This document shows positions 35,800 to 64,000 of a stretch of 64,000 nucleotides of DNA, one piece after another. Source of the DNA: Marsupella aquatica (Eukaryota; Plantae; Marchantiophyta); NCBI GenBank assembly GCA_973895155.1, contig OZ316894.1:9461440-9525439 (forward strand). The letters run 5' to 3'. How positions within the stretch are numbered: position 1 is the stretch's first letter; each line of letters starts with the position of its first letter. The notes below the pieces were generated by a model. It was not told the origin of the DNA. It saw nothing but the letters and a program-made list of their open reading frames with translations, and ran no database searches. Made by a program: the position numbers and the translations under genes.

Positions 35800-36302
35800 T
35801 AACACAGTGACGGACCAAACGAGAAGTGTGACCACACTTCTCATTTTGCCCGCGGCGAAAAAAGTTTCTAAGGCAAAAAAGTCTTGGATACAAAATTAGT
35901 ATTCCCCCTAAAAACTAGTTTTTCGAATTGAAAAAATGGGAAAAATCGACACGAATACGAAGATGGGATACGGCGTGTCCCATTTCGGATCCAACCGCGG
36001 AATTCCAAACAAAAAAAACAAACGCAGTAAAAGTGCCGATATTGGTTTACCCGACAAGAATATTCCAAAACGATTCTTCTCAACGGTAACATTTAACCGA
36101 TTGCGATGCAACTACAGTCAAATACTAACCATGGTCAGAGAGAAAACTATAAATAGGAGATCACCGCTTGAGAATTTTCCGCTCATTTTTCTCACTCTGT
36201 ATACTCTTACTCTCGACGAATGCACACCGTCTATACAAACTCGTATTCCCCGAAAATCAGATTTGACTAACAGGTGAGAATCTTCCTGAAAATGGCGAGG
36301 AC

Positions 36303-36956: not shown

Positions 36957-37547
36957 GATATTTACCTAGAGTTTTTTTGAATGATGGGAAAAACCTTATG
37001 GATTGTTGATTGTTTCGCAGGTGAAGTTCAACTAAACACGCACTGAAGCTCTTGCTGCCTTTCAGTGACCGACACCGACTCAAGCTTAAGCTTGCCTAGA
37101 AAAACCAAGTTTTCTCTTGTGAGTCTAATGGCGGTCCATAATCAAAATTGTGAGAAACGTGCTCGTCGATTGTATAAGCGATTAGTTGCACTCAAAGTTC
37201 TTCGTCCTGGATTAGGCACGCTATGGACGGGAGGCGTGGATCCACATGATAGTTTGAATCCACTCCGAATAGAGTTTTGTGAAAAAATGAGGATGGAGTT
37301 CCGATTCGGTCGAGGATATGTTTGAGTGGTTATCTGCACTCTGTTAATTCTTCTTGTAATTATTGTCGTGATGCCCAAAACAAATATCATCGATTGACAT
37401 ATTTGTGTTATCGGATTTGGAACGAAGATCCTTGGGTTAACTTATCGCGTTGAATCTTCTTGATTAGTGTGTAAGTGTTTAGGTGAACGTTCTTGGGTCA
37501 AACACTTTGTGAATATATTTTTCTTTTGATCAAAGAAATAAAATCAG

Positions 37548-37574
37548 TTTAGGGTTTAGGGTTTAGGGTTTAGG
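37548..37574 (+). repeat. Interstitial plant telomeric repeat (TTTAGGG)3 TTTAGG
   Basis: Read directly from the sequence. Confidence 0.9.
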
Positions 37575-37705
37575 ACAAAAACCAAACCGGTTTCCCTCTC
37601 TAACTAGAGCAAACCAGAACTAAGCCGTAGCCTAATACATAGGAATGAGGAAGAGCATATATCAGTAATTACAATGAATGTTAAGAAACTCTACTTGTGA
37701 TGCAA

Positions 37706-40700
37706 TTACAAAACCTGCAATACGTCACGATGTCTAGAGAAACTCTCCAAAGGAATCACTTTGGTAAATGCGTCAGCCGGGTTGAGTTTACCATCAATCT
37801 TGACTAGCTCAAACAAATTATCAGACACAGCCTGCCTGATAAAATGGTACCTAACATCAATGTGCTTCACTCTGCTGTCCATCACCTGGTTCACAGCAAG
37901 GTGGAGCGCACTTTGACTATCACAATGGAGCTTCACATTCCCCTGTGGCAATCCCATTTCAGTGATAAGTCTATCCAACCAAATTGCTTCCTTTGTTGCT
38001 TCCGCAGCTGCAACATACTCCGCTTCTGTAGTAGACTGAGCAATACACTTCTGCAAAGTAGACCTCCAACTTATGCATCCACCGCCAAGTGTGAACACGT
38101 ATCCTGTTGTTGATCTCCTTCGGTCCAAATCTTGTCCATAGTCAGAATCAACATAGCCAATCAATGATTTAGCATTCTTTGCATTCGCATCAAATAAAAG
38201 ACCATGATCCATGGTACCCTTCAAGTACCTGATAATCCACTTCACTGCTTCCCAGTGTACCTTCCCTGGATTCGACATGTACCTGCTCACCTTGCCCATA
38301 GCTACCATGGCAAGATCAGGTCTAGTGCAAGTCATCAAATACATGAGACTCCCCACTGCCTTGTCATACGGAACCTTTGACATCAACCCCTTCTCTGTGT
38401 CATCCGTAGGACAGAACGCTGATGATAACTTGAAGTGTGGAGCCAACGGGGTACTTACTGGCTTGCTATTCCCCATGTTGAACCTTGCAATTACCTTCCT
38501 CGCATAACTGCTCTGCGTCAACCATAGCTTGCCAGCCTCCAAGTCCCTAGTGATCTCCATACCCAAAATCCTCTTAGCTGGCCCTAAGTCCTTCATCTTA
38601 AACTCTACACTAAGCAGTGCCTTGAGCTTAACAATCTCAGACCTATCCTTGGCTGCAATTAGCATATCATCCACATAAAGTACTAAAACAATGAACCCAA
38701 AGACAACATTCTTTACCGGTTTCAAATACACACAAGGGTCAAATACACTTTTGTGAAAACCTTGTGACCGAATCCAATCGTCAAACCGCTTGTTCCACTG
38801 TCTTGGTGACTGCTTCAACCCATACAAGGATTTCAGCAATCTGCAAACCAATTCCTCCTGTCCTCTCTTCACAAAACCTAGCGGTTGTCTCATGAAGATC
38901 ACCTCTTCCAATGTGCCATAGAGGAAAGCTGTGACAACATCCATCTGATCTAGCAGCAGACCAAACATTACAACAAGTACACACAATAGTCGTATTGTAG
39001 AGTACTTAGCAACTGGTGAGAAGACCTCATTGTAATCCACACCTTTTTCTTGTGTGAATCCCTTTGCTACCAATCTAGCCTTGTAGACCTTCGATCCACC
39101 TCCTATGGAATTATCCTTCAGCTTGTAAATCCACTTGCTGTCCACCACTTGCTGACCCTTAGGCAGCTTAACAAGCTCCCAAGTTTTGTTGTCCTTTAGT
39201 GACTGCATCTCCGTTTGCATTGCTGCAGTCCACTTTTGCTTCTCCTTTGAAGCACTTGCCTCATGAAATGAAGAAGGTTCCCCTTCTTCCAAAATTAACG
39301 CATCACCCTCATCATCAGCTGTAAAATCATCCTCTTGCAGTTGAGATGAATCAACCCACTGTCCATACCTTGGTGGAGCGCGTACAGTGCGACCATATGT
39401 TCTTCTAGCCGATGACTCCGGTTGATCTGCGTGTGCTGGTACAATTTGAAGCTCAACAACATCCACTTGCTGCTCACCAGCATCAACAAACTCCTCTGGT
39501 TCCTCTGGCACAGGAACCAGCTCCATAATTGGAGCAACTCTTTCTCTCCGGTCATGCACCTCATAACCAATCTCCCCCTCAACAAGATCCGGGATAGGAG
39601 ATTTTCCTTTGTCAGTACGGGAGACCTGAGTATTCTCCCCCTCCTTCAATAATCTGGATTCATTGAAGGAAACATCCCTACTGACAACGAGCTTACAGGC
39701 AATAGGATCCCATAGCCTATAGGCTTTCACACCACTCTGGTACCCAAGAAAAACACATTTTCTGGAGGTAGGATCCAACTTGGTCCTATTCTGCTTCGGT
39801 GTGAGAGCATATGCATCACTTCCAAAAACTACCAAGCCATGATAGTCTGCTTGCCGCTTATAGCGCATCTCAAACGGCGTTTTGAAATTGATAGCACTAG
39901 AAGGAGAAAGATTTACCAAATAAGCTGCGGTATTGACAGCTTCTGCCCAAAATTCTTGTGGTAAATCTGATTGGCTCAACATACTCCGTGACCGCTCCAA
40001 CAGTGTCCGATTGAGCCTCTCAACGACACCATTCTGCTGCGGAGTATAAACTATGGTGAGATGGCGAGTTATCCCCTGTTCTGAACAGTACTCTTCAAAT
40101 TCCATTGAAGTGTACTCCCCGCCGTTGTCTGACCTCAGATTCTTCACCCTTGTATCCAAACACTTGATCGTGTTTCCAATCTGATTCTCCACCTGGGCCT
40201 TCCACTTCTTAAAAATGGACAAGACATCAGACTTATGCGTCATGAAATAAATCCACACAAATCTTGAGTAATCATCAATAAATGATACATAGTACAACTT
40301 TCCAGAGTGTGAGGGAGTCGGGGATGGACCCCACACGTCACTATGTATGTACTCAAGAACCGCTTTGGAACGATGAGTTCCAACACCAAAAGCACGACGA
40401 TGCTGCTTTCCAAGAATGCAATGCTCACAAAACTCTAATTTACAAGATTGCAAATCAGAAATGAGTCCATTCTTACGTAAGATAGCCAAACCCTTCTCAC
40501 TCATGTGGCCTAGCCGTGAATGCCACAGTTGAGTCATCTCCTCGTGAGACTTGGTTACATTGGCCTCTCCACATACAGTATTGCCCTGTAACACATACAA
40601 ATTCTTTTGTCTACTCCCCTTCAAAATCACTGTCTCTCTCGACCTGACTTGAAGTTCACCATCAATAACGCTCCATTGATGACCATTTGAATCCAACACA

Positions 40701-42007
40701 CCGAGTGAAATCAGATTCTTACGCATGCCAGGTACATACCTGACTCCGGACACTGTGCGCACAGCGCCATCAAACATTTGAATCTTCACAGACCCAATTC
40801 CCTCAATTTGACAGGAGTGATCATTTCCCATCAGAACTGAACCGTTTGAAACAGAGTAAGAACTGAAAAACTCATGAATGTAACAAATATGAAAAGAGCA
40901 AGCACAATCAAGAATCCACACATCATCTGCTCTCCTAGATGACGTGCACAGGGCATACCCCCGGCTTCATAAAACATACTCATCATTGAGTAAATCAGCT
41001 TCTCCATCAGCCCTAGCCACATTTGCCGATGAAGTTTCCGCTGCCTTTCCCTTACAGTCTCGCTTGAAGTGTCCAACTTGGTTGCACTTCCAACATGTCA
41101 CCTGCCTCCTCTGAGGGGATTTACCCTTGGACTTAGATCTGGATTTAGATCTAAACTGGGTTTTACGGTCCCTAGTTGGTCGCTGCATACTCCTCCCACG
41201 GTTAACATTGAGGGCAGCACCAGATGATGAAGGCTGTGACGTGATGTGCATCTTCTGCTGAAGATCATCACTAAGCAGAGAACTTACCACGTCATTGTAT
41301 GAAATGGTATCCCTATCACGATGCAACAACACTCGTGATAGGGACTGGTAAGATGGAGGCAATGAACTAAGAAGCTGCAGAGCCTTCGTCTCATCATTTA
41401 AAGTCTCCCCAAGGTTTTCCAAGTCAACGACCATGTCGTTGAAAGCATCCACATGGTCTTGCAGCTTCGTACCAGATTCCTTCATCCTGAAACTCATCAG
41501 TTTGTAGGAAGTGTAGAGCCGGTTCAACAACTCCTTGCGGTGATACTTGCTCTACAATTCCGCAAACAAGGACATGCAATCCTTATGTGCACCCAACTGC
41601 TTGATGATGGGAGGCATGAGATAAAGTGTAACACACCACACTCCCTACTCCTGCATGCGGTCCCATTGTTTCTCATCAACATCGTCTTCACGAGGGCTCA
41701 GCAGTTGGCCCATCCCTGACGCATAAAGCACTCCCTTCACCTGCTTCTCCCATAGCAAGTAGTCAGAGCGTCCATCATACTTTGTCACTTCATACTTGGG
41801 TCCCCCAAGCTTGAAAGTCCCCATCTTCTTCTTTGGCACTACCATGAGCTCCGGTAGTAGTACTGCTTCCTCCACCACACGCCGCACCGGTGATGGTATC
41901 GGTGTCACGTGCTCTTCCTCCTGCTCCTCTCTCTGCCCCTGAAACCTCCGCGGTGATCCTCGTGCTTCAAGTTCCACGTCTTCAAAAAACTCCTCCGAAT
42001 CACTCAT
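37706..42007 (-). mobile_element. Ty1/copia gag-pol (Tnt1/Tork-like); pol open for 1071 aa, gag with in-frame stops
   Basis: Gag knuckle CWKCNQVGHFKRDC; protease WILDCACSFH; LWHSRLGHMS..CEHC; integrase HSDVWG / RSDNGGEY / ERLNR; RT YVDD; RNase H YVDSD..EAEY..CDSQSA..ADAFTK. All segments share one frame, with TAG (41645), TAG (~41552) and TGA (40967). Confidence 0.97.
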
Positions 42008-43146
42008 ATGAGAAAATCACAAAAAATGTTGTTTTTCACAACTTCTCAAAAAACTCGAAACTCAACACCGCCGCATAGCCCACAAAGCTAGGAGTCCAAT
42101 ACTGAAAACCGAAATCAAAATTGAAATTTGACGAAAAAGTTATTCAAATTTTGGTCGAAGTGGGTAAAACCTTGGGAAACTCCCCCGTTTTGACCACCTC
42201 AGGGAATAACCGAAATACCAAGTACAACCCATTGTCGGAATTGCGATGTGATTGGTGCACCGCGTTGCCAACTTCAATGGCTACGACCTCGCCAAAAAAT
42301 AACCAAAAAAGTTACCGTTCGGCGGATGAAATCTTTGTCGGACGGTCAAAAAATAGCTCTCTGGTTTTTTGGAATATTTTATGACCCTTGTACAGGCCCT
42401 GTGGGAATTTTGGAAGAACAATTGAGGGGCTTACACGTGTCCTCGAACCCCCAAAACCCCCTACCACCCTTCGTCGTCGAAATCTGGTCGCGAGCGCAGA
42501 AAATACACACGACAGAATGTACCCCTCGACACCAAATGCAAGATATCTCACTCGGGTTTTGACGAAATCAAGATCCAATTTCAGATTTGGAAACTAGACT
42601 CCGAGGCAGTGAAGATCGATATAAGAAGCACCCAAAACGAGGAAAGAACGAGTGAGAAAAAAATTGGTAAAGATGACAGATTTCTCTCAATTGCCATAGC
42701 CAATTTCGAATCAGTTTTTCAAAGAGAAAAAAATGGTACCTTGTCAACAACGAATGTTGATCAATTGCACTTGGTGCCGTCACCAAGTCCAACAAGGTAA
42801 TTGATTTTGCTTAGCCTTCCTCTTTGCATCAAAGAGCCAATCCCGGACTCAAAACAATCGTCTTGCCTCAATCTCTCCGTTGAGTCAAAACACTTGACGC
42901 TTCTCCCTCCGAGTCGATTGCCAACTTTCTTCACAAAATCCAGAATGACAAAAACTTAGATCTCTCTGCACCACGAGCTCCGTTCAGTGATTTCTTCACA
43001 CCGTTAGAAAGCTCTTGCCCTGATCTATCCGTTGAGCCCATAAACTCCAAGTTCCATGCAACGGAACTCTGGGAAATCCACCGACACTCAACGCTGGAAA
43101 AACCGTCATGAAATCTCGTCACGAACACACGTCACCTCCCAAGCAT

Positions 43147-43158
43147 GCTCTGATACCA
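43147..43158 (-). other. Primer-binding site complementary to initiator tRNA-Met
   Basis: Minus strand TGGTATCAGAGC, 2 nt from the LTR end. Confidence 0.92.
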
Positions 43159-43160
43159 AT

Positions 43161-43581
43161 TGTTGAGCATAGATGACGATCGCAATGGCAAGCCCATGAA
43201 CCATCCAACGCACAATAGTCGACACAAGAGATACGTGGTTCACCTCCTTGAGGCTACGTCCACGGGAACACACAAGAGAGCTTTACTGAACTCTAAGCCC
43301 GTCGGCTATACCGAGTCTCCACAGTGTAAGCTCTCCCTATCTCTCAAGTGGCTCCATAACAATGAGCCTTGGTTCTACCTCTCCAAGCACACATGCCTCT
43401 TATGATATAGTGTGCAACTTAGTTGTACCTAACCACATAGTTGTATCTAATCACGTAGTTGTACCTAACCACATAGTTGTACCTAACCACGTAGTTATAC
43501 CTAACCACGTAGTTGTACCAACCCACGTTGTTGTACCAACCACGTCATACCTAACCTAGACGTAAGAGTAAATACCCAACA
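43161..43581 (-). mobile_element. 5' LTR of the copia element (421 bp)
   Basis: TGTTG...CAACA termini next to the PBS; contains an 18-bp tandem array. Confidence 0.88.
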
Positions 43582-44226
43582 AAATGAAGGTAACGCAGCT
43601 CGAATAGGATCTGGTAATGATGACCGCGCCGCGCGCAAATGAACCTGAAATGGGAGGGAACCCTCCTCTACCTCCATGAGAGACGAAAGTAAAAAAGGTC
43701 GATCCTTAGTAAGAAAACGATCTGCCAACAATGAGAAGGCGGCCGCCCACGCACCCAAAAAGGCCAAAGGTGCAAGGCACTCAGTGGAAGTAAGCCCAAA
43801 ACCACCGTGAGAAATAGGAAGACTGAGCTGTCGCTGAAGCCACGGAGATGAGAGCAAAGTACTTGGCCCTAAAAGAGAAGCCAAAGTCTCACGAATGGAG
43901 ACATCAAACGCTCGGAGATGTAGATACAGATCCTCCGTAGGGGGATGTGTCTGAGCCAAATAGGACGCGCGAGGGTGGATGCATCGCAATAACAACCCAA
44001 ATGCTGCCTGAGAATCTCCTAATTTAGGGAGCATAGGAGTAGGGGCTAAGGCAGCCTGTAGAGCGTCAGCAATGAAAGATGAGCAAAAGGAGGCGGTACT
44101 GACTGGGGAGCCAAGGACCCGAAGACCGTCGTTTGGACGTAAGAACCCAGGGGGAGGCGCAAGATCAAAGAGCCAAGAACAAAGGGAGGAAAGGGAAAAG
44201 GCCCCAAGAAAACCAAAGTGGTCCAA
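43582..44226 (-). mobile_element. Fragment of a CRE-like (RLE-group) non-LTR retrotransposon, RT end/thumb region, cut by the copia LTR
   Basis: GLRVLGSPV, LLLRC..RASYLAQTHPP, QLSLPISHGGFGL..LAPLAFLGAW resemble the post-RT region of CRE-type elements; similarity ends exactly at the LTR edge. Confidence 0.7.
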
Positions 44227-44361
44227 CTAGCGAAAGAGTGCCCCACAACAACAGAGGAACAAAAAAACAAAGAACCCACAAAGCCTATAAGATTAACACT
44301 CTATTATGTTGGGCAATGGACCGAAAAGCTTCATAGAGCTCCAGAGTAAATTACATAGGAT

Positions 44362-44776
44362 TATCACTGAAAAGCCTAGTAGAGCTAGGGAGTAAACTGA
44401 TAGGAGTATCACCGAAAAAAGGAGCAAATAGAACCTAGAACTGAAAAGCATGGTAGAGCCCCATAAGTGAACTGCACTAGAGGGTCACAGGAAAAGGGGG
44501 CAAATGGAGAGGGGCAAATGAATGGTACTCTTGAAAATCTCATTTGCATGCTTTTTACCTAGAGCAAGAATATCACTGAAAAGCCTAGTAGAGCTAGGGA
44601 GTAAACTGGAGAGGAGCATCACCCAAAAAAGGGGCAAATGGAACCCAGAATTGAAAAGCCTGGTAGAGCCCCAAAAGTAAACTCCACTAGAGGGTCAGAG
44701 TAAAAGGGGGCAAATGGAGAGGGGGCAAATGATACTCTTGAAAATCCCATTTGCATGCTTTTTACCTAGAGCAAGA
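44362..44776. repeat. ~209-bp tandem duplication upstream of the LDIP-like gene
   Basis: TATCACTGAAAAGCCTAGTAGAGCTAGGGAGTAAACTG at 44362 and 44571; each unit ends TTTTTACCTAGAGCAAGAA. Confidence 0.88.
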
Positions 44777-45446
44777 AACCAGTAGAGGAGCTGAGAGGGC
44801 ATTCTGGAAAGATGAGATTGCTTCCATTTGTTAATGATTTCTGAGCGTTGGAAAGACAAAAACTCCTCGAGTCCTTTGCTTTGCTCTGAGGCGATTTCGC
44901 TTTCTCTGCTGGGCGCTTTGTGAAGGATTGAATGCATGGCGGAATCACGAGTCGCGTTGTGACGAAGATTGCCGTCCGGTTTGTAAATCGAATTTCTGTA
45001 CCACACACTTGGCCTGCAGACTCGCTGATCCTCTCCTCTCCGAAGCCGACGCCCGGCGCGCAGATAATTATCCGCTGGGTCTGACTGTAAAGGAGGGCGG
45101 CAGGGAGGGAGCTTGTTGAGTCTGCATGGTTGCTGACTCTGAAAAGCTCGACGAACGGATTGAACCTCTGATACTCGCATGACATCGGAGGAGCAATTGC
45201 CAACCCTGCCGGATTCTTTGTTTCTTTGTTTTTTGAAAGAGGATTAGCAGCGCTCAGGCCCGAGAGGCTTGCCGTGTGTGTCTGTTGAACGATTCAGACG
45301 ATCGAGCGATAGCTCAAGGACAATGTAGGTGGGATTTATTTGGATGAAACAATTGGACGTCGTGAGCCTTTTTTAGGATTGTTGCTGTAGATTGGATTTC
45401 TCAATTTCTGAATCGAAGTCGTTTGGCGGACTGAAATTGTAAGATC

Positions 45447-45450
<4 letters not shown>

Positions 45451-45500
<50 letters not shown>
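45451..45500 (+). repeat. (GA)25 microsatellite ending in the start-codon A
   Basis: Read directly from the sequence. Confidence 0.95.
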
Positions 45501-45503
<3 letters not shown>

Positions 45504-48340
45504 GGTCAGATGAATCATCCGCGTTGGAGAGCACGAGCCCGGCGCCAAGCCCCGACAGAGAAAGCGTCCTGGTGATCTTGCGGGACCTCATCGAAGACTT
45601 GCGGTATGGTGGCGAAGCAAGGAAGCACCAGTCGGCGCTGCAAACATACCGCGGTGTTATTGCAAAGGCAGTACCACGGGTTAATCGATCCGTGAGACTC
45701 ATGTCCACTGACCTCGTACGTTGGATGAATCGTGGTGGTCACTGGCGGGCTTTCTTGATCTTATCGGTAAGGCACCCGTCACTCTGTCTTCATTATTTTT
45801 ATCGTTGCTGTAGCTCTCCCTTTCGTTAGACTGCAATCTGTTTCTTTCGGTGTGTCGGTCGTGTGCTACTTTTCAGCTGAAAGTCACTGCATAACTTCTT
45901 CAACTCTGTTCTTCACTGTCTTCTTTCTTCCGCCTTGCAGATGAGACTTCATATGATTTGATTCGCGCAATGTGTCTGTTTACCAGTTGCCTTGCTTCCT
46001 TCTTGCTTCACTGCGAAATTCGGGCATTCTTTCCTATAGCTCTTGGTGGATGAGGCTGCAGTGCAAATGATGCATGCACTCTGTTTCTTTCTCTCTGCTT
46101 CCCGCACTCTGTTTCGTTCTCTGTAGCAGTCGTTTTTTTTCAATCGCATTTTATAGCACTAATCATAGAGAAAAGGTCAACCACTACTACAACAAAGTCA
46201 TGCAGCCCAGTCCCTCTCTGCATGTCATTTGTTTGCTGCTGGTTTGCTTCTGTAAGTTTGTCGTCCGCATGGTAAACTCAAAGGAGCTGAATTATCTGCC
46301 AATCACATTCCAGTTCGTAATTAAGGGTACTTCTTCTCAATCAGTTCTCACAACAATAGTTCTTCCTTGCTCAAACAGATTTCAACCTGTCTCAGAGACT
46401 TTGATCATTGTCCTGTGTTGCATGTGACCAACGACCGAGGGACCTGTGCCATGAATGAATTGTTGACGTTTGTACGAAGATCTGCTTTTCAGAATCGCGC
46501 ATCCAAAGATCGAGAGATCGAGGAAATGCGAGTGCAATTGTTGTCACCTGATCTTCATGATTTCTTTCGTGTGTTTCGGCACAGTTATTGATCAACTCCC
46601 GGTAGCCGAGGGAATAAGACAGTCTTGGGCGTTCAATTACTGTGGCATGCATATAGAGTCGGCAACATGCAAGGAGCTTCTTGAGAGCAGTGCACCTTCC
46701 TAGACATATCAACCCAAGACATGCAGATGTGCGGGGTAGTCCAGCTGTTTGGGATGGAGGTTTTTTGGAGTAATTTTCGATTGCTTTTTGTAACAGGAGC
46801 TGCCCTATCATAACCTACGTTGTTACAGACATACTGTACCGCTCCAGCTGCGAGAAAATACTTTGCCGTTTACAGTAATTGCAGTAGGAGTGGGGAAATT
46901 TTTTCTGCGACCAAAGTGGACCAAGAACTAGCTGGACCAAGAAAATTGGATTGCAATTTGTAAAATATTTTTCATGTGTCTAGGTTCTCCAGCGTTGGAG
47001 GCGGGCCAGACCCCCTAAAAGGACCAGTCCTCTTAGTGAACTCTGTTCTTTTCGGTGCTGCAGTCAATACGACTTGAACAGCCATAATTGTGTTGGGAAA
47101 TATAGCAATTCTGATCGTCTTACCTTTTCTCATGTAGAGAATTTGCCTGCGGATATGTCGAAGTATGAAAAAATCTATTGACGGACTTTAAGAAAATCAG
47201 ACGAATTCGTCTTCTTGTTTGTGGTTGTTTTACTCTGAAGTTTTCATCACTTTCCCTGTAGTGGATTTCTTTTAGCTTTTTCCAACTATATCCCACCAAG
47301 CGTACACCTTTGCACTCCTTAGCGCAACAGGACTCTTACATCCTCGAAAAAGGCAATTAATGGCATCCATCGACAAAAGGAAAGGAGGATATCGTATCCG
47401 GGATTGTCACCTTTTACAGTACTTCTCTGGTCTTTGTTCAATTCTTACAGGCCGTTCCTGGGCTGTCTTAATCTCTTCCAGCATTCCCCTCACGTTTCTC
47501 CGTAGAAGTCTAATTTGCTTTGCTGGGTTCTGACTAGCTATGCAGCTCTACCTTCCTAAATGAGGGACTCTTTTTAATGACCTGACTGGCATTTCGCCAA
47601 CGCGCCTTGTTTCATGCAGAGCGGGATTATAACTTCTATTAGCTTGAGCGGAATTTTCGTATTCCTGCTGTTTTTGATAACAGCAACGGTGAACACTATG
47701 ATTGTAGCACTGCTGGGGTCACTGGCAGCTGTCGGGGCTGTTGCTGCCCTTTTCTTCACTGCTCTCACGGGTATCTACATTGGGGTCCTGGCAATCGCTG
47801 CCTGTGTGATATCGACTGTCGTATTCTTTACCGTTGTTGCGGTGTTGACTGCTGCAGGTTCGTTGTCCTTCCTTCACTTTTCCTTGTTTCCGCTCACAAG
47901 CTAAGTATCACATTGGATTGTCTCTGCGTTATTTGCTATCGTTCGGTCGGGTGATTGCCTTTGAAGGCACTGCAGGGATTCAGTGTCGGGCGATGCAGTA
48001 AATTTTTAGTGGCTGTACCATTTGAGCACCAACATCTCTACTTGTATCATATACAGTCATTTCCTATTTCACGAGACGGCATTAAACTGAATGTTTCAAG
48101 CGAAGTAATCTGAAAGGGTCCGGGCATGTAGAACTGACTTTAATAGCTGGAACGAATCAAATTGTGCGAGGATTTTGAGCCACGTCTGATTGTGTTTTGG
48201 AACGAATGGATTTAATTGCGAATGCAGGCTGGATCGCATTCTTTTGGGTGGTCTGGCTGGGAGTCAGGAAGTTCGTGCAGATTGCTCAGGGATCACTTGC
48301 TTTCACAGCATCAACCTTTCAAAACACTGTCTCACTTTGA
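45500..48340 (+). CDS. LDIP: LDAP-interacting protein (LDIP)-like lipid-droplet membrane protein, 205 aa; exons 45500-45766, 47620-47857, 48228-48340
   Basis: DLVRWMNRGGHWRAFLIL, FLLFLITATVNTMIVALLGSLAAVG..ALFF.ALTGIYIG.L.IAA.VIST and AGWIAFFWVVWLG match my recollection of Arabidopsis LDIP; GT-AG junctions give 618 nt in frame. Confidence 0.82.
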
Positions 48341-49548: not shown

Positions 49549-52500
49549 GTGTTGTAACACGGTTTCTCACAAATACTGGCACAACCTGTTGATAACAATG
49601 ATATAGTAGATTTGGTCCTGATTCATGAGAGGTTATTCCCAGAGGACGTGTACTCAATGGTTCTCCAGGTGAGATACTTCAGCAATCCCAATGGGCGCTT
49701 CACACGGGCACGAGAAAAACAGGCAGTCTTATGTTTATTCTAAATCATCACAACTTGGACATATGGGCAAAGTGACTCACGCACTGATCAATCCGTTCTG
49801 CAAATCCCCCACTGGTACAATCCAGTCTCCAAAACAGGCGCAACCAGGATGATCTATTAAATAATAGGGGTGTTGGCATGGTTCACTACTAGGATAGGGA
49901 CAAAATACACCTTTGTTCAAACACCTTTGACTAAGGTGTACTTTGGACTTTGTCCCCACCACTGACTCGAACACATTAGGGACAAAAGTGTCACACTAAC
50001 ACCTTTCACTATGATGTAAAATACATTAGGGACAAAAGTGTCACACTAACACCTTTCACTATGATGTAAAATGTATGATGTGAGGGCCTCTATTCTCTTG
50101 CGGAGACAATCTTACATCTATTATTAATTGTACACTGTATTTTAGAAACATATACAGTTCATTCTAGACATATAGTTTTGGAACTCTGTTATGCCAATAA
50201 AATTCATATAAACTAATTGGCAGATCATTCTAGACATATAGTTTTGGAACTCTGTTATGCCATTAGAATTCATATAAACTAATTGGCAAATCTTTGGTTA
50301 CCTTTCCATGAATGCAAATGACTTTCCGAGGAGGAAAAAGGGCAGAAAATCTGGATGATGTTCAAGAGCTTCCAGAACCTGTGGAGTAGATGAAATCTGC
50401 AGAAATGCAGCGGAAGAAGAAACACCGGGAGTAGGAGGGCCGACGAAGGACAGGCCAAACCCGTCCAACGAAAATGCCCGGTTCAGCCCTGCAACAAATG
50501 GGCTGCCAAACCCAAAATCGATTTTATAAAATGGGAAGGAACTGCAGCAAGTCTGTGACCATAACAATGTATTATCATTCACGAGGGCATCCGCTGTTTC
50601 TCCTATCCTGCAACATCACAGACATAATTGGTATCAATGTCAATATTTGGTAGATGGACAATCCATCCGCTGTGAACATTTAATAAAATCCGATAACAAC
50701 ATGGAATGACATCATTACTAAAATCCAAATTAGGCATCGGACGCCAGCCAGGCTCTCTGCAGATGCAAAAGTGCAAGAAGACACACTCAGTGCCAATAAA
50801 AAATTATTTATTACTCCAGACATATACCCTTCGGGAGAAAGCCATGCTTCGCGACTCGTTGTATTGATCTTGTCACGGATTTTGCTCGCAATGATAGATA
50901 AGGGCATATTCAAAAGTTCGGCACTTGAAATCTTCGGCGCCCTCGTAACTGCAATCATATTTCCTAACAAATTGGGCCGTGGAGGATCAAAGAACTTGGT
51001 TCTCCCATCAACAGCACTCAGCACTCAGCATTCCAATTTCTTTTCCACTAATGATCGAGAAAGGCAGACTTGATAGAGTTTTCCACATGTGAGCGGATAT
51101 GCAATCCATTGTGCTCACGTATGCTCCTTCTGCATTCCTTTTAACTTCCTGTTTGAGAGATGTGATGACTGCTGCGTTGACCTAAGAGACAGAAAAGTAG
51201 AGGACAAATCATTAGTGCTATGCTAATATGTAATTAATTATGAAGAAGGAAAGGATACTACATCAGCTTGCAACATTATGTTGAGTGAGGCACAAGAATG
51301 AATTGCACCCAAGCACGAAACAAGGCATATCTTTCATACCTACCATAACGCTCACAAAACTTGGATAGATGAAGACAGCAACCCTAGCCTGTTTACAAGG
51401 GCTTTACCTCGTAACATTTTGTGTTCCATTTTTGTTCATCAGTCGAAGTGGTAGTCGGCCGGGATCCAGGGCTTGACAACTGTGTCGCTGCTCGATTGTG
51501 GTCCAAAATCATGTCGGTTTTGTCAACTCGAGAGAAGTCAGACCAAGCTGTCATGAAATGCATAAAACTCCGGCCATCCGAGGTCATGTGATTTCAGGTA
51601 ACACCAAGGACCAGGCCCCCACATTTGAAACGTGTGACCTGTTTGAAAGCCAACACCTTTAAATAAGTAAAAACAATTCCATCTTCATTAAGTTAGATCT
51701 AAGAGGTATCTACTCTCTAGGGAGGACAATACATTATTCATTCTTCCCAGGTCAAATCACGAGTTCTCTATAACTAGGATGAAAAATATAGTGACTGTCA
51801 AAAGGGTAATGCAAAACTTAATAAAAGGAGGCTTTGTCACACGACGTATGGGTTGGTAGGGAGTGTGCCAATTATTCCCATAGAGCCTGTCTATCGCACA
51901 CGCGGACCACATTCTGAAGGGCACACAACTGAACAACAGGACAGAACTCACGAGATATAACATGGAAGGTTTCAATCTGGGTGCATTATGAGTAGAAAAC
52001 GAGAATTGGCACTCCTTCTACTGCCCACAGACAGTGATAAGTGTAAAAGTGACAATGTCTAATTTGAACCTTGCCCAAAGTGCCAGTTTCCTTCGTCCCT
52101 GCCATTGTTGCTTTTGTGCTTTAAAAACGTGTGACCAAACAATTACTTGCATATCAAAGGAGGGGGAGCCTCATGCGCTGGAAGACTAACTAGTCCGAAT
52201 CTACTGCTGTGTTATATTCTGTGTCGGAAAAATATAGCAATTACATGCGGATTTTGTCTACTATAATTTGTAATATCAATGCATGTCGTGTAATTCAAAG
52301 AGCGCTCTAAAAGAAAAACACTCATCCGTTCTAAGCTAGCTTTTACAGTCATAGCTCCAGCCAGTGAGAAAATTTCGATGTTCAGGGAGCATTCCCGTAA
52401 ATGCGCGTTTCGATTGCAGACGCGTTAGATAAGATCGCTCTCCACTTCTATTTCAGACCAAAATTTAGGCTAAAAGTGCAAATTCAGCGACGGTATGGTG

Positions 52501-53957
52501 GCTATGAAGGAAGTTGCCCCTGAACTTACTTGGACGAATGCACAAGGGAGTCCATCTGGCAGCATTGGTTGTGTGAAATTCACCCACTGCATGCCAAGAA
52601 CGCTGTAGCCTTGCAGCTCCGGGACAGGTCGGAATTTCGCAGAGAAGCCCACAACTGAGTCCAGATCCTTGTCCACATACGCTTCTATAAACGGAATGCC
52701 CTTATCGTTGCACAGCAGCTGGCGGTCTATACCTCCAGGGATTCCCGCAGGGATTGCAATCCATCGGCCGGCCCATGGGAAGAACGGAACTAGCACCTTC
52801 CGCAGACCTTGTCGAATCCGATTGACCGTCTCCATATACAATGCGTCGGAGTTGTCCGCCAGTCTGTAGGCATAAAGTCCGGGCATGAACCCGTCTCTCA
52901 CAAAATCGTCTACATCCGTTGCGTCGATTTTCTCCACATGCGGCGTTTTCTCGAGCGGCTCGACGGTGGTGAGGACCACATTAGTGAGCAGAAGTGGAGG
53001 GGGCGACTCCGATCCCATGATCAGCTTCCTTGTCGTCGTCACTGTGATGGAATTGACACTAATAACTATACAGCAGCTGGCTGGAGAAACTTTGAGTGAT
53101 GAGTACTGTCAGACCGCAGTATCAGAGGGCAGTTGAAATACTAGTCTGCTGATCGAGGTCGGAAAAGAAGAGCTCCAGCCAGCTTACGTATTCTTGTCTC
53201 CGTGATTATTGGCAGTTGTTGTGTTGACTGTTGGTTCAGTTGTACGTTGTGATGGGTCCCGACACCCCAGAGAGTGAGATCGGAAAGGAAGACCTCCAGT
53301 CTGATGATTGTCTGATGCTCGATGAGCTTAAATGCTACTTATTCTGGTTCACTCATAGAGTGCCCGTCCGTTAACTTAACTGCAGGGCATATTTTGTTTT
53401 AAGGACCTTCTAGTAAATGCAAGACGGCACTAATTATAAGGGCCGCATTTCTCAGACGCGAGGCCTGGAGGGAGTGACGGGGCTGCGGGGGGAGTGGGGG
53501 GCCTGGCCTACGCACCAACTCGGCCTGCCGTCCCGGCCTCACCGCCGTGACAGTATCGCTGGGTACTGATGTGGCTACCGACCCAACAACCAGTCCTGTA
53601 CCGAGGATACGACCAACGAACACGGGGGGCGGGGAGGGGAGGGGGGACGGGCAGGGGGGCGGGCTGGGCACCAGCTCGGGTTTGTGTAGGTGGAGCGTGG
53701 AGTTCTGGTGGGACCTGAGTAGTGGTCGTCCTGGAACTTATAGCAGGACCTTGACCAAAGTCTGGGTGGGGTTAATAGGCTGTGGTAGGTAGGCTGTCAA
53801 CCTGGGTTTGGAATGTAAGAGCAAATTGACCGGCTGCTGGTTTATAAGGATGTAAACCCAGGGTTTTGAATTTACACTGCCTTTCAAAGGGGGAAGTGTA
53901 GAAGACTTTCCACATTAATTTCTTTCCCATTTTGCTCATTCTTCATTATGGTGCCAC
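49549..53957 (-). repeat. Right arm of the inverted segmental duplication
   Basis: Reverse-complement match to 2154-7703, lacking the segments ~5935-6965 and ~7147-7456. Confidence 0.92.
50298..53018 (-). pseudogene. BAHD acyltransferase, copy B, disabled. Exons ~53018-52530, 51638-51408, 51181-~50828, ~50607-50298
   Basis: Same motifs as copy A (HMTSDG, IDFGFG). Nonsense TGC to TGA immediately before HXXXD (~51595) and a 7-nt GCTGAGT duplication causing a frameshift (~51020). Confidence 0.88.
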
Positions 53958-57299: not shown

Positions 57300-58010
57300 T
57301 GCCTCACCTTAGCATCTATTCTCACCTTCGCAAATTTTTTTTAATCTTTACATATTTATTGCTCTTCGACATGTTTTCCTTGCCTTGACATATGTTTCTC
57401 ATTTTGTCAGGTTTTTCTCACATTCACATCTTTACCTCACCATGACATTTTTCCTCACTTGATATCTTTTCTCCCCTCGACATCTTTTCTCTCCTGGGGT
57501 TTTTATCTCGCCTTGACATCTTTTCCTCACCTCAACAACTTTTTCTTATATCACCATATTTTTCTCATCTTGACATTTTTTTCTCTAGCTCCTCAACATA
57601 TTGTCTTCATTTTCATATATTTCTCACCTCGACCTCTCTTTCTCACCTCAATGTCTTTTTCTCTCATCAACATCTTTTTTCATGTTGACACCTTTTCCTT
57701 ACCTTGACATCTTTTTCTCACCTTGATATCTTATCTTTTTCATATATTGCCATCCTTTTCTCACCTTGATATCTTATCTTTTTCATATATTGTCATCCTT
57801 TTCTCACCTTGATATCTTATTTTTTTCATTTATTGCCATCCTTTTCTCACCTTGACATCTTTATCTCCCGGCTCACGACATCTTTCCCTCACCCATGCCA
57901 TTTGTTTTTCTCTCGGACTCAACATCTTTACATATTTTCTTCAGTTTGCTATCATTTCTCTCCTCAACATCTTTTTCTCACCTGAATTTCTTTTTATCAC
58001 CTTGACATCT
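57300..58010. repeat. Pyrimidine-rich degenerate minisatellite with a ~43-bp higher-order triplication at ~57712-57860
   Basis: Recurrent TTTCTCACCTTGA(C/T)ATC motif. Confidence 0.75.
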
Positions 58011-58849
58011 TGCCATTCCATTGCACTCTCTAAACAAAGATATTGTACTAAGTGAGGAAAAAGCATTTCAGTCAACAAATATCTTTGTTTCGAGATTTTG
58101 TATGTACTTGAAACTCAACTATGAGCGTCCAGTCGAATCAAATTAGATGCATAATTCCACATCACGCGACTCTTATAGTACGTGGATTTCAATGAAAATG
58201 TCAAGCTCGAATCCTTGCTTGATTCAAAATGTTACATAAAGATCCTTATGCTCTAACCACGTAGGAGAGGAGTTGTAAAGTTAATCCTCACTGTTCTATC
58301 GAAACAAATTAAACATTTACGATCACCACTCACTACAAGTCTTGGTAGGTTCATTCTCAGAGTGACCTTGTCCCTCCAGCCAGTTACTCCATTAGAGTTC
58401 AGTAAAGTTCTAGGTCACCAGTTACTCCATCAGAGTTCAGTAAAGTTCCAGATCACCACTCATTGCATGTTTTGGTAGGTTCATTCTCACAGTACGTGAT
58501 CATGTCTCTGGAGCCAGTCACTCCATTAGGGTCTCAAACCTCAAAGTTTGATGACCATTATGGACAAAAAAGTTATAGAACACCAAATTCATAATCCATA
58601 GCTCTTTGCCCTAAAGATCATGTCGTGACATATAGTATCGTAGCCATAGTGTATCAAAAACATACAAGTCACCGACAATGCATATGTGCAAGCTGCTAGC
58701 AACCAACATGCATAGAAAAAGTCCAATCACATTCACAAGTGCCAAGAAAAAGCAAATGAAGTGGTATGTACGTAGTGGAGGTGTAAACCTCTGTATCCCC
58801 CCCAGACCACAGCCAAAAGGAGGGCTGAAGAAAATTCAGGTAGCACGTG

Positions 58850-58990
58850 GAGCACAAGAAGGGCAAAACCATAACCCTTCTAGCACCTAGGTAAGTTCAG
58901 GCCGAAGGCAGAAAAGATGGTACCCTCCATTGCAATTGTCACACAGCAGCATCTGGTCAGCATCATCAATTCGCAAACACACTTTGCAAG
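58850..58990 (-). other. PHD finger at the integrase C-terminus
   Basis: CKVC..DDADQMLLCDNCNGGYHLFCLRPELT*VLEGLWFCPSC gives C4-H-C3, read through one TAG; the ORF ends APRAT* at 58836. Confidence 0.9.
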
Positions 58991-61900
58991 GGTAGTCCAC
59001 AGGTGGAATCCAGGTAGAAGTCACAATGGTGGGATCCAGGTTAGGCAGACGACAAGGGGCGCAATTCTTGGCATTGTCAGCAATTGTGCGCCCATCTGCC
59101 CCTTGTAACTCTAGCACTCCAGACGGTCGAATAGCTTTAACCCTGAGAATAGTACGACTGGTAGAGGTGTCCAGGGTGTCGTTAGCTTGCCGTTGCAAGT
59201 ACACAAAATCTCCCACTTCAAACTTCCTGACCTTGGGCTGAAAAGTGCCCCCTCGTGTGTGTGCATAACGCAGTGTGTCCCTGTGCTGTGCGATGGCCAA
59301 ATTCCATGGCCATGGGCATAACCCTCCTGAATAGGGCAGCCTTCTCAGAGATCACATCAGACCAAGTCACAGCTCAATCCAAGTCTACCACTTGAAGCAT
59401 GTAAGCAGCAATAGCAGAAGGTGTAATTGGGTGACGACCAAACAACAAGAAGTAGGGAGAAAAGTTAGACAGTGATGCATGTCTGGACATCCTATACCCC
59501 ATGGCAATGTAGGGTAAGGCCAGGTCCCAATCCTCCTTGTTTTTGGTGAGGCAAATCTTCCGGAGACCCTTCTTGCATGTCTGAACCATGCGCTCTGCCA
59601 AGCCATCTGCCTGTGGGTGATCTCGTGATGTTCGGCGATGATCAATGAGGGCCTAATCAAGCAGCTCCTGGAACTCTCCTCTAAACTCTGAGCCCTGGTC
59701 AGTGAGACATTCTGCACAAGCTCCAAAGCGACTGAGAACTTGTTGCAGGAATGCCTGGCTGGTGCTACGGGAGGTCTTTATCTGGCAATGCCACAAGTTC
59801 TATCCACTTGGAGAAATGCTCTATCATGATCATGATGTAGAGATTACCCCAAGACGTGAGGGGTAATTCTCCAGCCAAATCACATGACCAGCGATAAAAC
59901 ATGCCCTGAATAGGGAGTGGATGAAGTTAAGTGTGGGTTGTCGAGATGTGAAAGAAGTCCTCACCCTATCACACTGTTCACACCGGGCAATAACATCTCG
60001 AACCTAGCCATGCATGCCTCTCCAATGATAATGAGGGACCAAGAGGCTGTAAGTCCTCTTAACGCCAAAATGACCACGCTCATAATGTACTTTACGGATA
60101 AGGCCAACCCTCTCATAAATGGGTGGAACCACCACTTCCCTGTCTGGCAAGCAGCGCACGAGATGATCTCCCTTCCACAAGTAACGCTTGGACCTTTGCT
60201 GAATTCGGTCTCTCTGGGCAGCAGTAACATGTATGGGGTACTCCCCATGCTACAGAAATCTTAGAGTGTCGCTGTCCTCCCATAGTCCACCACAGGTTGG
60301 TCAACAACATAGCATGGCAGCAAAGCAAGATAGGTCGATGCATGAAATGTAGGCAGGATGGAAACCTGGTCAAAATCTTGCCGTGCATCTGAGGAATCAT
60401 CAGAGGTAATCAAAGGGCTGTGGGACATAGTGTCAGCATTCTGATGTGTCACACCAGGCCTATGAATTACCTCAAAATCATACTCCTGGAGTATGAGGGC
60501 CCAACGAGCAAGCTTGCCAGTAAGCTTGTCGTTGGTCATCAACCACTTCAAGGGCTGGTGGTCGGTGTAGAGAACAAACCTGGTCCCATAGAGGTAGGGC
60601 CTATAATGTATGACAGCCCACACAACAGCAAGGCATTCACCCTCATAAGAAGAATAATGACTCTCTGCCTGATTGTTGCTCCTGGATGCATAGGCAATGA
60701 CGTACTCTTTACCTTCCTCATCATGCTGGCCCAGAATGGCACCAATCCCAAGGGCACTCCAATCTGTGTGTAGCACAGAGACCTTGCTGAAATCAGGTCT
60801 TCTCAGCATCGGGTATTCTGAGAGCTTCTCCTTCAAAGTGGCAAATGCTGCCTCAGCATCTGTACTCCATGTCCGAGTCACATTCTTTTTCAACAAAGCA
60901 TACAATGGGTGTGCAATGGTATTGAAATCTTTGATGTAGATCCGGTAGTAATTGCACAACCCAATAAAACTCCTCAAAGTGTGAACATCGATAGGAGTGG
61001 GCATTTCCAAGATGGATACCACCTTGGCCCAGTGAGCCATGGTTCCATTTGGAAGAATGCGGTGCCCAAGGTATACTACTGATCTGACAGCAAATTCACA
61101 CTTCTTGGGGTGTATCTTTAGGTTCACCTTCTTAAGCCTCATGAATAGCTCCTCAAGGTCAAGTAGATGTTGGTCAAATCCTTTGTTGTGGACCAACACA
61201 TCATCAATGTAGCATTTCAGAAACTCAGCACCTTGAAGAACCTGGTCCATGACTCTTTGAAAGAATATGGGCGCATTCTTCAAGCCAAATGGCATCACCA
61301 ACCACTCCCATAGTTGGTTACTACCATGGAAAGTTGTTTTCTTGCGGTCCTTTGCAAGCAACAAAATCTGGTTAAAGCCTTGCCTTAGATCCACAAGAGT
61401 GAAGATGTCTGAGTCTCCAATGCTGTCAAATAGCTCCTCTGGCCGTGGCATGGGGTACCTGTCCTGGGGTGTGACCAGGTTCAATGGCCTATAGTCCCCA
61501 CACATGCGCTTCTCTGTCCACAATCCACTAGAATCCTTCTTTGCTGGCATCATTGTAGCTGCTGCAAAATCTGATGTACATGGCTGAATAAGACCAGCTT
61601 CATAGAGCTCTTGGCATCTCTCATCCACCAGCTGCCACTCATGCTTACTCAAACGATGTCTCCGCCTGAAGATAGGTGTTTCATCAACCAACTCAATGGA
61701 GAACTGCATAGTCTTGCACTTACCCAAGTCCTTCATAGAGAAAGCAAACACATTCTCATGCTTGAGGAGCAAATTCAGCAGCTGGTCCTTCTGTCTTTTA
61801 CTCAGGTGGTTGCCCATGATGAATGTGTAGTTGGCAACACTAGGAATAGGACCTGATGTACTCGTGCTTGAAGAGCCAGAAGTGCCAGCCTCTCCACTGT

Positions 61901-62174
61901 CCAAGCTGCTAGCATGCTGCTGATAAGGTGATGAGGCCTCTCCAAGGCCTGCTGTATCTGTTGCTCTGGTCTGATCCACACCATGAAACTCAGAAATAAT
62001 GTCAGCCACATTACAAGGGACCTCCTCCCCCCCAACACTTGGACTGAAGTGGTGAGTGTTGGACAGAGGTAAGTGCACCTGGTCTGGATGCCATGTAGCA
62101 GCACCATGGAGTGGTAGGGCTGGAACTCCTGATGCTAGATGAATGTACATCTGAAAAAGGATGCAAGTGACCAA

Positions 62175-63113
62175 AAGCCAAGTGAGAGCATTAAGATCCA
62201 TTACCCTGCCAAGTAAAGCATTCCTGGCCAGCCTGGTGATTTTGGTGTGACCTGTAGTACTGGGTTGGAAGCCCATAGCCCGTTCTCTCTCCTCATGACT
62301 AGGTTCATCCCATGTACCGGTAGAATGTCGATAAACCAGGCCAGGACCATCAGTGCCCTGAAAATCATGTGCACCTGGAAAGGACACAAATATAGGCCAA
62401 GCAGCACGGGGCTGTCCAATGGTATTGGCTGGATACCAAGGTGCTGGCTCTTGCCGTGTAACTGGTTGGCAAGAACTGTCAGGATCCAAAATCTGGTCCA
62501 CTGTGAGGTTAGTGTCCCTGGATGTGTGGTGAAGAGCTAACTCCAACAAGGAAGGTGGTGCAAGGTTAGTCCAAAAGTTACGAAGACGATGTGCATAAGA
62601 ACCACAGTGCACTGCATCAATGAGAAGGGGTGGTCCCAAGTAGTGTTGGAGCACACTGAAATCCTCTTTGACCTGTGGACGCTGGTCAAACTGAGATGGA
62701 GTATTCTCAATGATATAACCAACAGCAGGATAAAGGGATTGAGCCCAGGTGAGAATCTGAACCAATGCTGTGAAAAGGCCAGAACAAGAATCATGCAGTC
62801 CAGCACCATGACCAGCAGCTGAAAACCCTTGGCATTCCCAACCAGCTATGATCAAATCAAGGGAGCCAAGAAGGGTTAAGTGCCGGTGCTAGACAAGCTG
62901 GATATCTGGAGGAAAGAAAGAAAATGCAGACTTCCATGCACTATGTGGAAACTGCTGAGGAAATCGCTCTGAAAATTCCAGCAGACGGGATTCAGCCACT
63001 TGCCTTGCACCTGGATCAATATCCACATAGATGTAGTGCTTCACCACCATGCCAGACTGTAGGAGAGCTTCCAGGCCTATAGAAATGCCACCAAAAAGCT
63101 CAAGCAATGTAAG
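62175..63113 (-). other. DNMT3-like C5-cytosine DNA methyltransferase domain embedded in gypsy pol
   Basis: Motif I LLELFGGISIG, II YIYVDID, IV DLIIAGWECQGFS, VI YIIENT, VIII LIDAVHCGSYAHRLRNFWTNL, IX EERERAMGF and X RLARNALLGR, all in canonical order. Confidence 0.9.
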
Positions 63114-64000
63114 GCCATCCGGAGCAGGAGTCCATATAACTGGTGCGCTCAAGATTGGGGCTATTGGCTGTCCATTGTGCTGCCCAAGGTCTTCAAACTT
63201 GTGCAATGCAGCCACCAAAGGTCCATGGGCTGCTTGGAGCCGTTGTACCACCTTTGGTTGATGATCCACGTTGCTGGAAAGTGCTGCTATACATGCAGTA
63301 GCATGTGCAGCAGCCACCTCATCGTCATCCTCCTCAATCCAATCTTGCAATGGGTGGTTGACATAGGTAGCTGTGTGCACTGCTTTCAACACACATTGGT
63401 GAGCCATAGGTGTATGGGCACCATGCAAATCAAGTGGAATGTAGCCCAAGTGTGAGCCATCAGTATGCCAATCAACTCTGTAGTATGCATGCTCATGCCA
63501 GTTGTCAATGGTAAAACCTGGTGGGAACAAAGCCTCCTGGCCAATGAGCACATCATACGTAGTGGCATTAGTAACCAAACATCTGACTGGGAAATGCAGT
63601 TCTTGATCTGTACCTCCATTAAAAGTGAGAGTGAGTAAAGTAGACCTCTCACCCAGCACATCCTCCACAGTGCCACTAGCAGTCCGAATGTGCCACTTGG
63701 ATTGCTGTAAATGATCAGTCAACAGTCCCATCTTCTTGGCAAACTGAATGCCCAATATCACTGGTTGAGCACCTATGTCTAGCATGACCACCTGAGGAGT
63801 GTGACCCTCCAACTTGACCACTGAATTCCTGTTGTCAACAATGGCAATGGTGGTGGAAACTGAAGTCCTGTCACTAGGCACCACTCTCGGCAAATGATGA
63901 GGTGCCTTGTGAAGGGAGTTAGTGTCCACGGTCTTTCCACTCAACAACATAGCCAGGAAAGATGGAGCAGCATGACCAGAATCAAGTGTAGCTCTGGTCA

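Follow-up and report, generated by a model that had tools for sequence, protein, structure and literature searches.

A DNMT3-like methyltransferase in the Pol of a land-plant gypsy retrotransposon family, and terminal repeats that may reflect integration from a self-primed circle

The stretch of Marsupella aquatica contig OZ316894.1 analysed here (64,000 nucleotides, positions 9,461,440 to 9,525,439; hereafter the window) almost certainly holds, at its right-hand edge, a broken copy of a multi-copy Ty3/gypsy-type retrotransposon with a DNMT3-like C5 cytosine methyltransferase domain between its protease and its reverse transcriptase (RT). Such elements are known from algae; new here are the land-plant hosts and a set of end structures that point to self-primed, circle-opening integration. 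As the best explanation of the whole, we consider it reasonably probable that in working copies the enzyme acts on the element's complementary DNA (cDNA) and that integration proceeds from a circle. The proposal in its full form is more tentative, and we place it slightly below an even chance: a gypsy family of liverworts and peat mosses whose attachment sites have moved to the middle of the repeat, whose self-primed circle is opened by a DDE integrase and whose DNMT3 domain marks the cDNA.

The Pol frame, its methyltransferase domain and its hosts

A single minus-strand frame of 1245 codons (63998-60264), containing one stop only (a TAG, read as X), encodes in order a protease, a C5-methyltransferase, an RT and an RNase H; downstream on the same strand come an integrase, which is broken, and a PHD finger. 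The aspartic protease domain (63504..63827) was recognized by a gag-asp_proteas Pfam match to residues 61-157 of P0001 (E 1.2e-4, below the cut-off), the RT (61056..61823) by RVT_1 (E 5.9e-27) and the RNase H (60480..60869) by RT_RNaseH (E 5.6e-37) together with RT_RNaseH_2. An earlier reading of this DNA, made without database searches (the sequence-only reading), had placed the catalytic Asp codon of the protease at 63779-63777 and the YIDD motif of the RT at 61211-61200, and both lie exactly there. The zinc-binding and core parts of a DDE-type integrase (59304..60290) were identified by Integrase_H2C2 (E 9.6e-7), by a weaker rve_3 match (E 0.012) and by tblastn to an open relative; they carry stops, plus insertions or deletions near 60284, 59924, 59777 and 59302 relative to other copies. 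The integrase C-terminus and the PHD finger (58836..59303; Pfam PHD, E 2.6e-8) extend to the pol stop at 58838-58836, and the finger is interrupted by one in-frame TAG. The succession of protease, RT, RNase H and integrase is that of Ty3/gypsy (Metaviridae) elements, in agreement with the gypsy-type pol first proposed. No tyrosine recombinase, a trait of the DIRS order, was found in the window element, where Integrase_H2C2 and rve_3 stand in its place, and a search for a chromodomain after the integrase gave no chromo match at E 0.1 in 58890-59351, where the PHD finger is located. In relatives the protease frame extends upstream into gag, and gag, protease and methyltransferase are open in one frame in the related proteins P0004 and P0462; the N-terminal 400 residues of P0004 resemble zf-CCHC/Retrotrans_gag clusters, a lead only. 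At the window copy this frame runs past the edge, so that gag and the first repeat fall beyond position 64000.

The methyltransferase domain (62124..63122, minus strand) shows motifs I to X in the linear, unpermuted order of DNMT3 C5 methyltransferases: I, LELFGG, at 63104-63087; II at 63029-63015; IV, with the sequence GWECQ, at 62858-62820; VI at 62711-62697; VIII at 62621-62562; IX at 62291-62268; and X at 62234-62196. The order and frame of this motif set had been described correctly, but the set is not uninterrupted, since an in-frame TAG (62891-62889) splits the domain between motifs II and IV. With this stop and a broken integrase, the window copy is dead. Contigs from three public runs (X1, X2 and X3) are without the methyltransferase stop. 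A linker with a Ser/Gly-rich stretch (61824..62123, minus strand), already noticed in the sequence-only reading, connects the enzyme to the RT.

The Pfam DNA_methylase match is weak (E 1.2e-4; 22.0 bits, exactly the curated cut-off), and it is backed by a family profile and by a fold comparison. As a single sequence, the window domain had DNMT3A as its top match (E 4.7e-7). A profile of 47 homologs, hand-picked from the matches and consisting of short, mostly single-domain proteins, matched DNMT3A (8e-26), DNMT3B/C (1e-22), DRM (5e-15) and HhaI (3e-10) in the PDB; no entry named DNMT1, MET1 or CMT appeared among its 56 matches. An AlphaFold2 model (pLDDT 95.8) had DNMT3A/B as Foldseek matches (E 3e-18), and VIA-align ranked DNMT3B first (Z 28.9; root-mean-square deviation 2.6 over 275 aligned residues), followed by DNMT3A (27.5), M.MpeI (25.1), DNMT1 (19.3), ZMET2 (18.4) and MET1 (17.5). 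Thus, judged by profile and predicted fold, the enzyme is DNMT3-like rather than of the MET1/CMT or DRM type, as had been suggested from its motifs. In both sequence and fold, DNMT3s that act on DNA come out on top, and DNMT2 ranks far below them.

The catalytic Cys of motif IV and the Glu of motif VI are invariant (47/47 homologs), and the Arg of motif VIII is present in 42 of the 47; the window has all three, and 68 of 71 related loci keep the Cys. Between the window and related loci, the ratio of nonsynonymous to synonymous differences (pN/pS) was 0.32 in the methyltransferase, compared with 0.19 in the RT, 0.27 in the protease and 0.51 in the spacer; at 0.46, the linker is under weaker constraint than the enzyme domains. 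The corresponding rate ratio (dN/dS) for the methyltransferase, a test proposed at the outset, came to about 0.13, a rough value with synonymous divergence near saturation. By these sequence comparisons the domain is retained family-wide under purifying selection. We consider it probable that it is catalytically active in working copies.

The methyltransferase is a family trait and not a peculiarity of the window copy. Domain searches returned 103 long proteins, 363 shorter ones (120 listed) and 245 representatives at E 1e-30 or better, and a metagenome scan confirmed at least 621 loci, 80 of which were kept as the related loci used throughout. Every one of the 60 loci covering both protease and RT contains at least 200 codons of the methyltransferase, so the one-off insertion once considered was not seen. 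A frame of at least 500 codons survives in only 2 of the 80 loci; open gag-protease-methyltransferase and methyltransferase-RT frames exist in other family members. In run X3, six contigs had a depth of 1207-1686 against 16 for the flank and differed from the window at 25 of 1591 bases. We read this as a young family of many copies, with the proviso that depth is not copy number.

The host is a land plant, as the sequence-only reading had deduced from neighbouring genes, and probably a leafy liverwort; of these neighbours, a BAHD gene and a type II metacaspase were matched by Pfam. The best named matches of the metacaspase (29386-30558) were from Calypogeia fissa (68%) and Marchantia paleacea (50%). 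The element itself has 68% identity, across 536 columns, to a Calypogeia protein whose contig is 66.6 Mb long, and the last 25 nucleotides of the element plus the flank junction were present in all three public runs with 0 differences (flank contigs 58215-58645 in X1 and X2, 58100-58647 in X3); algal contamination was not seen. Among the matches listed, proteins of Sphagnum compactum and S. magellanicum match the domain, and the named family matches in Calypogeia and Sphagnum sit on contigs of 13-67 Mb. Because the S. compactum protein agrees with the metagenome type at 189 of 205 residues, the 80 moss-like metagenome loci probably come from peat mosses.

A quick tree grouped the methyltransferases of the window, Calypogeia and the moss-like loci in one clade (support 100), and elements with the RT before the methyltransferase formed a separate group (support 96), one row of which crossed in a second tree; both were quick searches with fetched relatives only. 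Identity between the liverwort and moss members of the pair is about 70% in the methyltransferase and 86% in the RT. That second architecture (RT-RNase H-methyltransferase-integrase-PHD) has named examples in the chlorophytes Haematococcus and Chromochloris, and the RT precedes the enzyme in 89 of the 95 stored proteins with both domains. Closterium proteins share the protease-methyltransferase order, and no named Klebsormidium sequence was among the domain-search matches. We saw no close viral or bacterial donor of the domain in the parts scanned: in viral contigs, a single algal-type protein as query found no relative and a profile found only weak matches (25-44% identity over part of the domain, best E 2e-9), and prokaryote genomes gave one strong match (L161, discussed below) and at least 25 weak ones. 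A family member labelled as from a bacterial bin (P0080, Minisyncoccia) is likely eukaryotic contamination of that bin.

Split terminal repeats and a candidate integration cycle

To the right of the coding region, the window copy has a G-run polypurine tract (58797..58803, minus strand) directly before a repeat, B (58621..58796, minus strand), which ends in CACGACA and both limits of which, 58621 and 58796, are marked by loose ends and a step in depth. There is a single B with no further repeats after it, and only the CA end is visible; the four bases after 58621 are predicted to be half of a 4-bp target duplication. The last 21 nucleotides of this B match the end of the moss-like B (E 0.39, weak alone). 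In run X2, the loose ends at both B edges, compared by eye (agreement 0.46 and 0.59), look like joins from B to A and from A to B and hint at other liverwort copies that are complete.

The structure of complete copies was examined in the related loci, where self-comparison and coverage indicated a 5' repeat plus a longer 3' block; repeats were mapped with A and B taken from locus L031. The order A-coding-B-A-B (A1, B1, A2 and B2 from left to right) was found in 11 of the 80 loci (8.6-10.4 kb), with ends TGTCATG..CACGACA or decayed. Two equal long terminal repeats (LTRs) on either side of the coding region, as expected of Ty3/gypsy elements, were not found, the repeats being split in this way; paired-LTR search tools will miss such elements. 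TG..CA termini and a target-site duplication within the 4-6 bp of Ty3/gypsy elements are present in relatives. A 4-bp duplication was exact in 5 of the 11 loci and had one mismatch in 4, the ends being damaged in 2; among 10 loci of the form A-coding-B it was exact in 5 and had one mismatch in 3 (chance for the duplication, 0.6% and 6.7%). When B copies adjacent to the purine tract and with flank were counted (42, not de-duplicated), 27 continued into A and 15 were single. Two loci contain opposite-strand pieces of other copies: an A-B unit inside another copy's 3' region (L024:14043-14500, minus) and the B-A-B end of a second element (L052:9282-9967, minus). Solo A-B units may be this family's equivalent of solo LTRs.

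The junctions between these parts differ in their precision. The B|A junction has a spacer of 2 nucleotides in 25 of 26 matches, the distance from A to the primer-binding site is fixed in 32 of 37, and the G-run precedes B in 37 matches. The A|B join, in comparison, occurs in six different lengths among 22 matches, the most frequent length accounting for 9 of them; in 20 independent insertions inspected by eye it had lost 1 nucleotide in 9, 3 in 5, 2 in 3 and none in 3. The element thus has both a polypurine tract and, in relatives, a primer-binding site: the site after A1 is complementary, with at most 3 mismatches, to a 15-mer lying 31-33 nucleotides after a TATA box in 30 of 33 cases. The predicted self-priming stem of 14 bp had a z score of -3.9, a value reached by 0 of 200 shuffles.

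The same features occur in two distant relatives, L161 and L187 (40% protein identity to the window Pol), which share the G-run, B, a CACGACA-nn-TGTCAC junction, a self-complementary 13-mer and a B-A-B end. In these, B2 is without the first 2 nucleotides of B1, and in L187 the two are 100% identical over 106 nucleotides. L161 (3-6635) and L187 are contigs in a cyanobacterial metagenome-assembled genome and presumably represent a misbinned eukaryotic element; the circular assembly of L161 was not counted as a free circle, since collapse of multiple copies yields the same. Both of their frames are open. The gag-protease-methyltransferase frame ends in TAG, followed by CAA TCA and continuing in frame into the RT, an arrangement that fits a UAG-CAR-YYA read-through signal. 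If this read-through is real, the methyltransferase would be produced at Gag levels there. P0009 and P0226, tree neighbours of L161 and L187, also stop 165-166 residues past the domain.

The ends of a retroelement's cDNA are set by its priming sites. Applied to this family, the start of B would be the left end and the end of A the right end. In the cycle that we propose, the RNA would start about 32 nucleotides past the TATA box that A contains, and would prime itself in the manner of Tf1 by pairing its 5' end with the site just after A. Plus-strand synthesis would begin at the purine tract before B and yield a linear B-A-coding-B-A molecule whose ends are without TG and CA. Joining of these ends with loss of 0-3 nucleotides would give a circle with a ragged A|B join. 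The integrase would then cut the B|A junction on the side of the primer-binding site (CA-nn-TG) with a 2-nucleotide stagger; a staggered cut after each CA would leave recessed CA-3'OH ends with 2-nucleotide overhangs, the geometry of processed retroviral ends, which have 2-base extensions (PMC11054761), and the integrase would insert A-coding-B-A-B. One-repeat circles, or later recombination between the B copies, could produce the A-coding-B form seen in the window. The methyltransferase would be packaged with Pol and mark the cDNA before insertion. That the cDNA forms a circle, which the integrase opens at CA-nn-TG, is in our judgement about as likely as not; if true, it would be a natural example of an integrase of retroviral type acting on a circular precursor.

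Target of the enzyme and competing explanations

That the element's own cDNA is the main target of the methyltransferase is the option we favour, with moderate confidence: the domain sits within Pol, and DIRS-borne DNMT3 domains methylate CG in yeast (PMC5890265). Action of the element-borne enzyme on cDNA was proposed by de Mendoza et al. (PMC5890265). The CpG content of the elements gave mixed results as a sign of self-methylation, and we do not use it as support. The CpG observed/expected ratio is 0.18 in the window element against 0.47 in a copia element of the same window, and the last 40 nucleotides of repeat B reach about 2.0, compared with 0.39 in the element interior.

Several observations weigh against this combination of cDNA marking and circle integration. 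Motif IV has Glu-Cys in 28 of the 47 homologs and in the window (WEC), with Pro-Cys in 18. The enzyme of KnitGypsy-Dnmt3, the closest known element, gave no methylation in yeast, a result that its authors call inconclusive (PMC5890265). CpG depletion in 12 moss-like loci is not specific to the elements (methyltransferase 0.35, RT 0.26, element range 0.26-0.44, flanks 0.36), and the distant relative L161 shows no depletion (0.73-0.84). The substrate of retroviral integrases is linear DNA, and for retroviruses the circle-junction model has been abandoned (PMC11054761). A two-repeat circle has two junctions of the kind that the integrase would cut. Opening at the second would yield A-B-A-coding-B, a form shown by none of the 33 loci with a 5' A plus flank (not de-duplicated); consequently, an extra asymmetry is needed. 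B2 has its own B1 as nearest copy in no more than 4 of 20 insertions, a weaker pairing than that for A (6 of 9). Finally, the terminal evidence other than B itself comes from relatives and not from the window.

The strongest competitor, although still an unlikely one, is copying in the style of PAT, Ngaro and VIPER elements, in which the RNA would run into B2, the internal B-A junction would serve as template for both ends, and the integrase would receive linear or branched DNA. The order A1-coding-B1-A2-B2 matches that of Ngaro, PAT-like and VIPER elements (PMC6681497), and such copying would account for the missing A-B-A-coding-B form. Three features are not predicted by it, however: that the purine tract lies exactly where B begins, that the self-priming site lies exactly where A ends, and that only the A|B join varies in length, the other junctions being fixed. 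It is these features that favour the circle.

Slightly less likely still, we think, is that no cDNA is marked at all, the domain being kept for nucleic-acid binding or methylating RNA or host DNA. The Glu in place of Pro in motif IV, the negative yeast result for the Klebsormidium enzyme and the absence of CpG loss in L161 would fit this possibility. The invariance of the catalytic Cys and Glu speaks against it, as do the yeast activity of the DIRS-borne domains and the fact that the top matches in sequence and fold are the DNA-acting enzymes and not DNMT2.

Improbable, in our view, is that the methyltransferase serves integration and not disguise: the CpG-rich end of B would be methylated while the RNA is being reverse transcribed, the two junction copies would thereby be marked on opposite strands, and the integrase would read the mark to select the junction to be opened. 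As a last step of the full proposal set out at the start, a mark that decides which junction is cut is equally improbable. The CpG content of the end of B and the need for an asymmetry between junctions are in keeping with it, and split repeats and the enzyme occur together in Klebsormidium (PMC5890265), in the moss-like loci and in L161/L187. Integrase recognition alone, however, explains the retention of CpG at the ends equally well.

Three other origins, namely a host DNMT3 retrocopy inserted once into a gypsy element, a chimeric assembly and contamination by an alga, are refuted, despite no listed contig piece spanning the entire element, by the segment's presence in 60/60 loci with protease and RT, the open frames elsewhere, the 3' junction with flank in three runs and the long Calypogeia and Sphagnum contigs, and we give such origins practically no weight.

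Known elements and other features of the window

The sequence-only reading had linked the element to the work of de Mendoza et al. (2018), where KnitGypsy-Dnmt3 of Klebsormidium nitens is indeed described, in this one alga (PMC5890265). Like the elements studied here, KnitGypsy-Dnmt3 has an intronless, unpermuted DNMT3-like domain in a gypsy Pol frame, with purifying selection on the domain, and DIRS-like repeats that its figure legends give as A-coding-B-A-B, the order of our 11 loci (the window has its single B). It differs in its host, an alga, whereas the window is from a liverwort and the named matches are from Calypogeia and Sphagnum. The passages on KnitGypsy-Dnmt3 in that paper give no target duplication, priming site or replication model for the repeats; the terminal anatomy described above offers a concrete model for them. 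Its table of 96 genomes, as we have it, includes Physcomitrella and Selaginella and does not include Sphagnum or Marchantia. Gypsy-DNMT3 elements are mentioned for streptophytes only in the relevant passages of three sources (PMC5890265, PMC12344493 and bioRxiv 10.64898/2026.05.21.726589), the last two of which say just "streptophytes" there, and their data could include bryophytes. In the literature covered, mostly without subscription journals and Repbase Reports, we found no report of the family in land plants or of the circle-opening route. Methyltransferase-carrying retrotransposons are thereby extended beyond a single charophyte alga to land plants in which methylomes are tractable, and since the family appears young and abundant in at least one sequenced run, the benefit of the enzyme to the element is testable in bryophytes. 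Bryophyte annotations overcount DNMT3 genes where they include fragments of these elements, as the annotated proteins of Calypogeia and Sphagnum do.

Other systems share single traits with this family. SymbioDIRS-Dnmt3 likewise has a DNMT3 domain in Pol, one that methylates CG in yeast (PMC5890265), and split direct repeats are common to it and to PAT, Ngaro and VIPER elements (PMC5890265; PMC6681497). Unlike these tyrosine-recombinase retroelements, our elements have a DDE integrase, a PHD finger, TG..CA ends and 4-bp target duplications. The predicted self-priming, by complementarity between the 5' end of the RNA and the primer-binding site, resembles that of Tf1/Sushi elements and of the plant Tcn1 chromoviruses (PMC6317226; PMC4600332), but these carry chromodomains and ordinary paired LTRs where ours have a PHD finger, a methyltransferase and split repeats. 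The sections of PMC6317226 on plant gypsy clades and self-priming feature no such enzyme. EpiLTRs of Cymbomonas and Euglena are also LTR elements with a cytosine methyltransferase, but theirs is sister to DNMT4, is accompanied by DAM and a chromodomain and is called distinct from the streptophyte Gypsy-DNMT3 (bioRxiv 10.64898/2026.05.21.726589). The host DNMT3 of non-flowering plants, which is lost in angiosperms as the sequence-only reading had stated, has the same linear motif order and is the likely source family; it differs in being a host enzyme for de novo and CHH methylation (Yaari et al. 2019, PMC6453930). Two further candidates were rejected: Troyka, considered for its odd ends, has CG..CG ends, a 3-bp duplication and animal hosts (PMC12440569), as opposed to TG..CA and 4 bp here, and Gypsy-7a of Chlamydomonas shares the PHD finger and has LTR subparts, but the section of its description covered here includes no methyltransferase.

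Elsewhere in the window, a copia element (37706-41551, minus strand) has an open pol frame of 1086 codons and a gag frame; an LTR pair was not found for it in 34000-46000. A degenerate 19-bp satellite and two short direct-repeat pairs (57355-58011 and 58321-58493) adjoin the 3' end of the gypsy element. Open frames at 8966-9886 (plus), 20172-21179 (minus) and 43501-44226 (minus), of 241-335 codons, gave no Pfam match at E 0.1. The type II metacaspase exon (29386-30558, plus strand) contains a repeated insert rich in Glu, Arg, Gly and Tyr. The BAHD acyltransferase gene is present as an inverted duplication (2810-5749 and 50225-53170) with 95% identity over 2962 nucleotides, and further matching blocks surround both copies.

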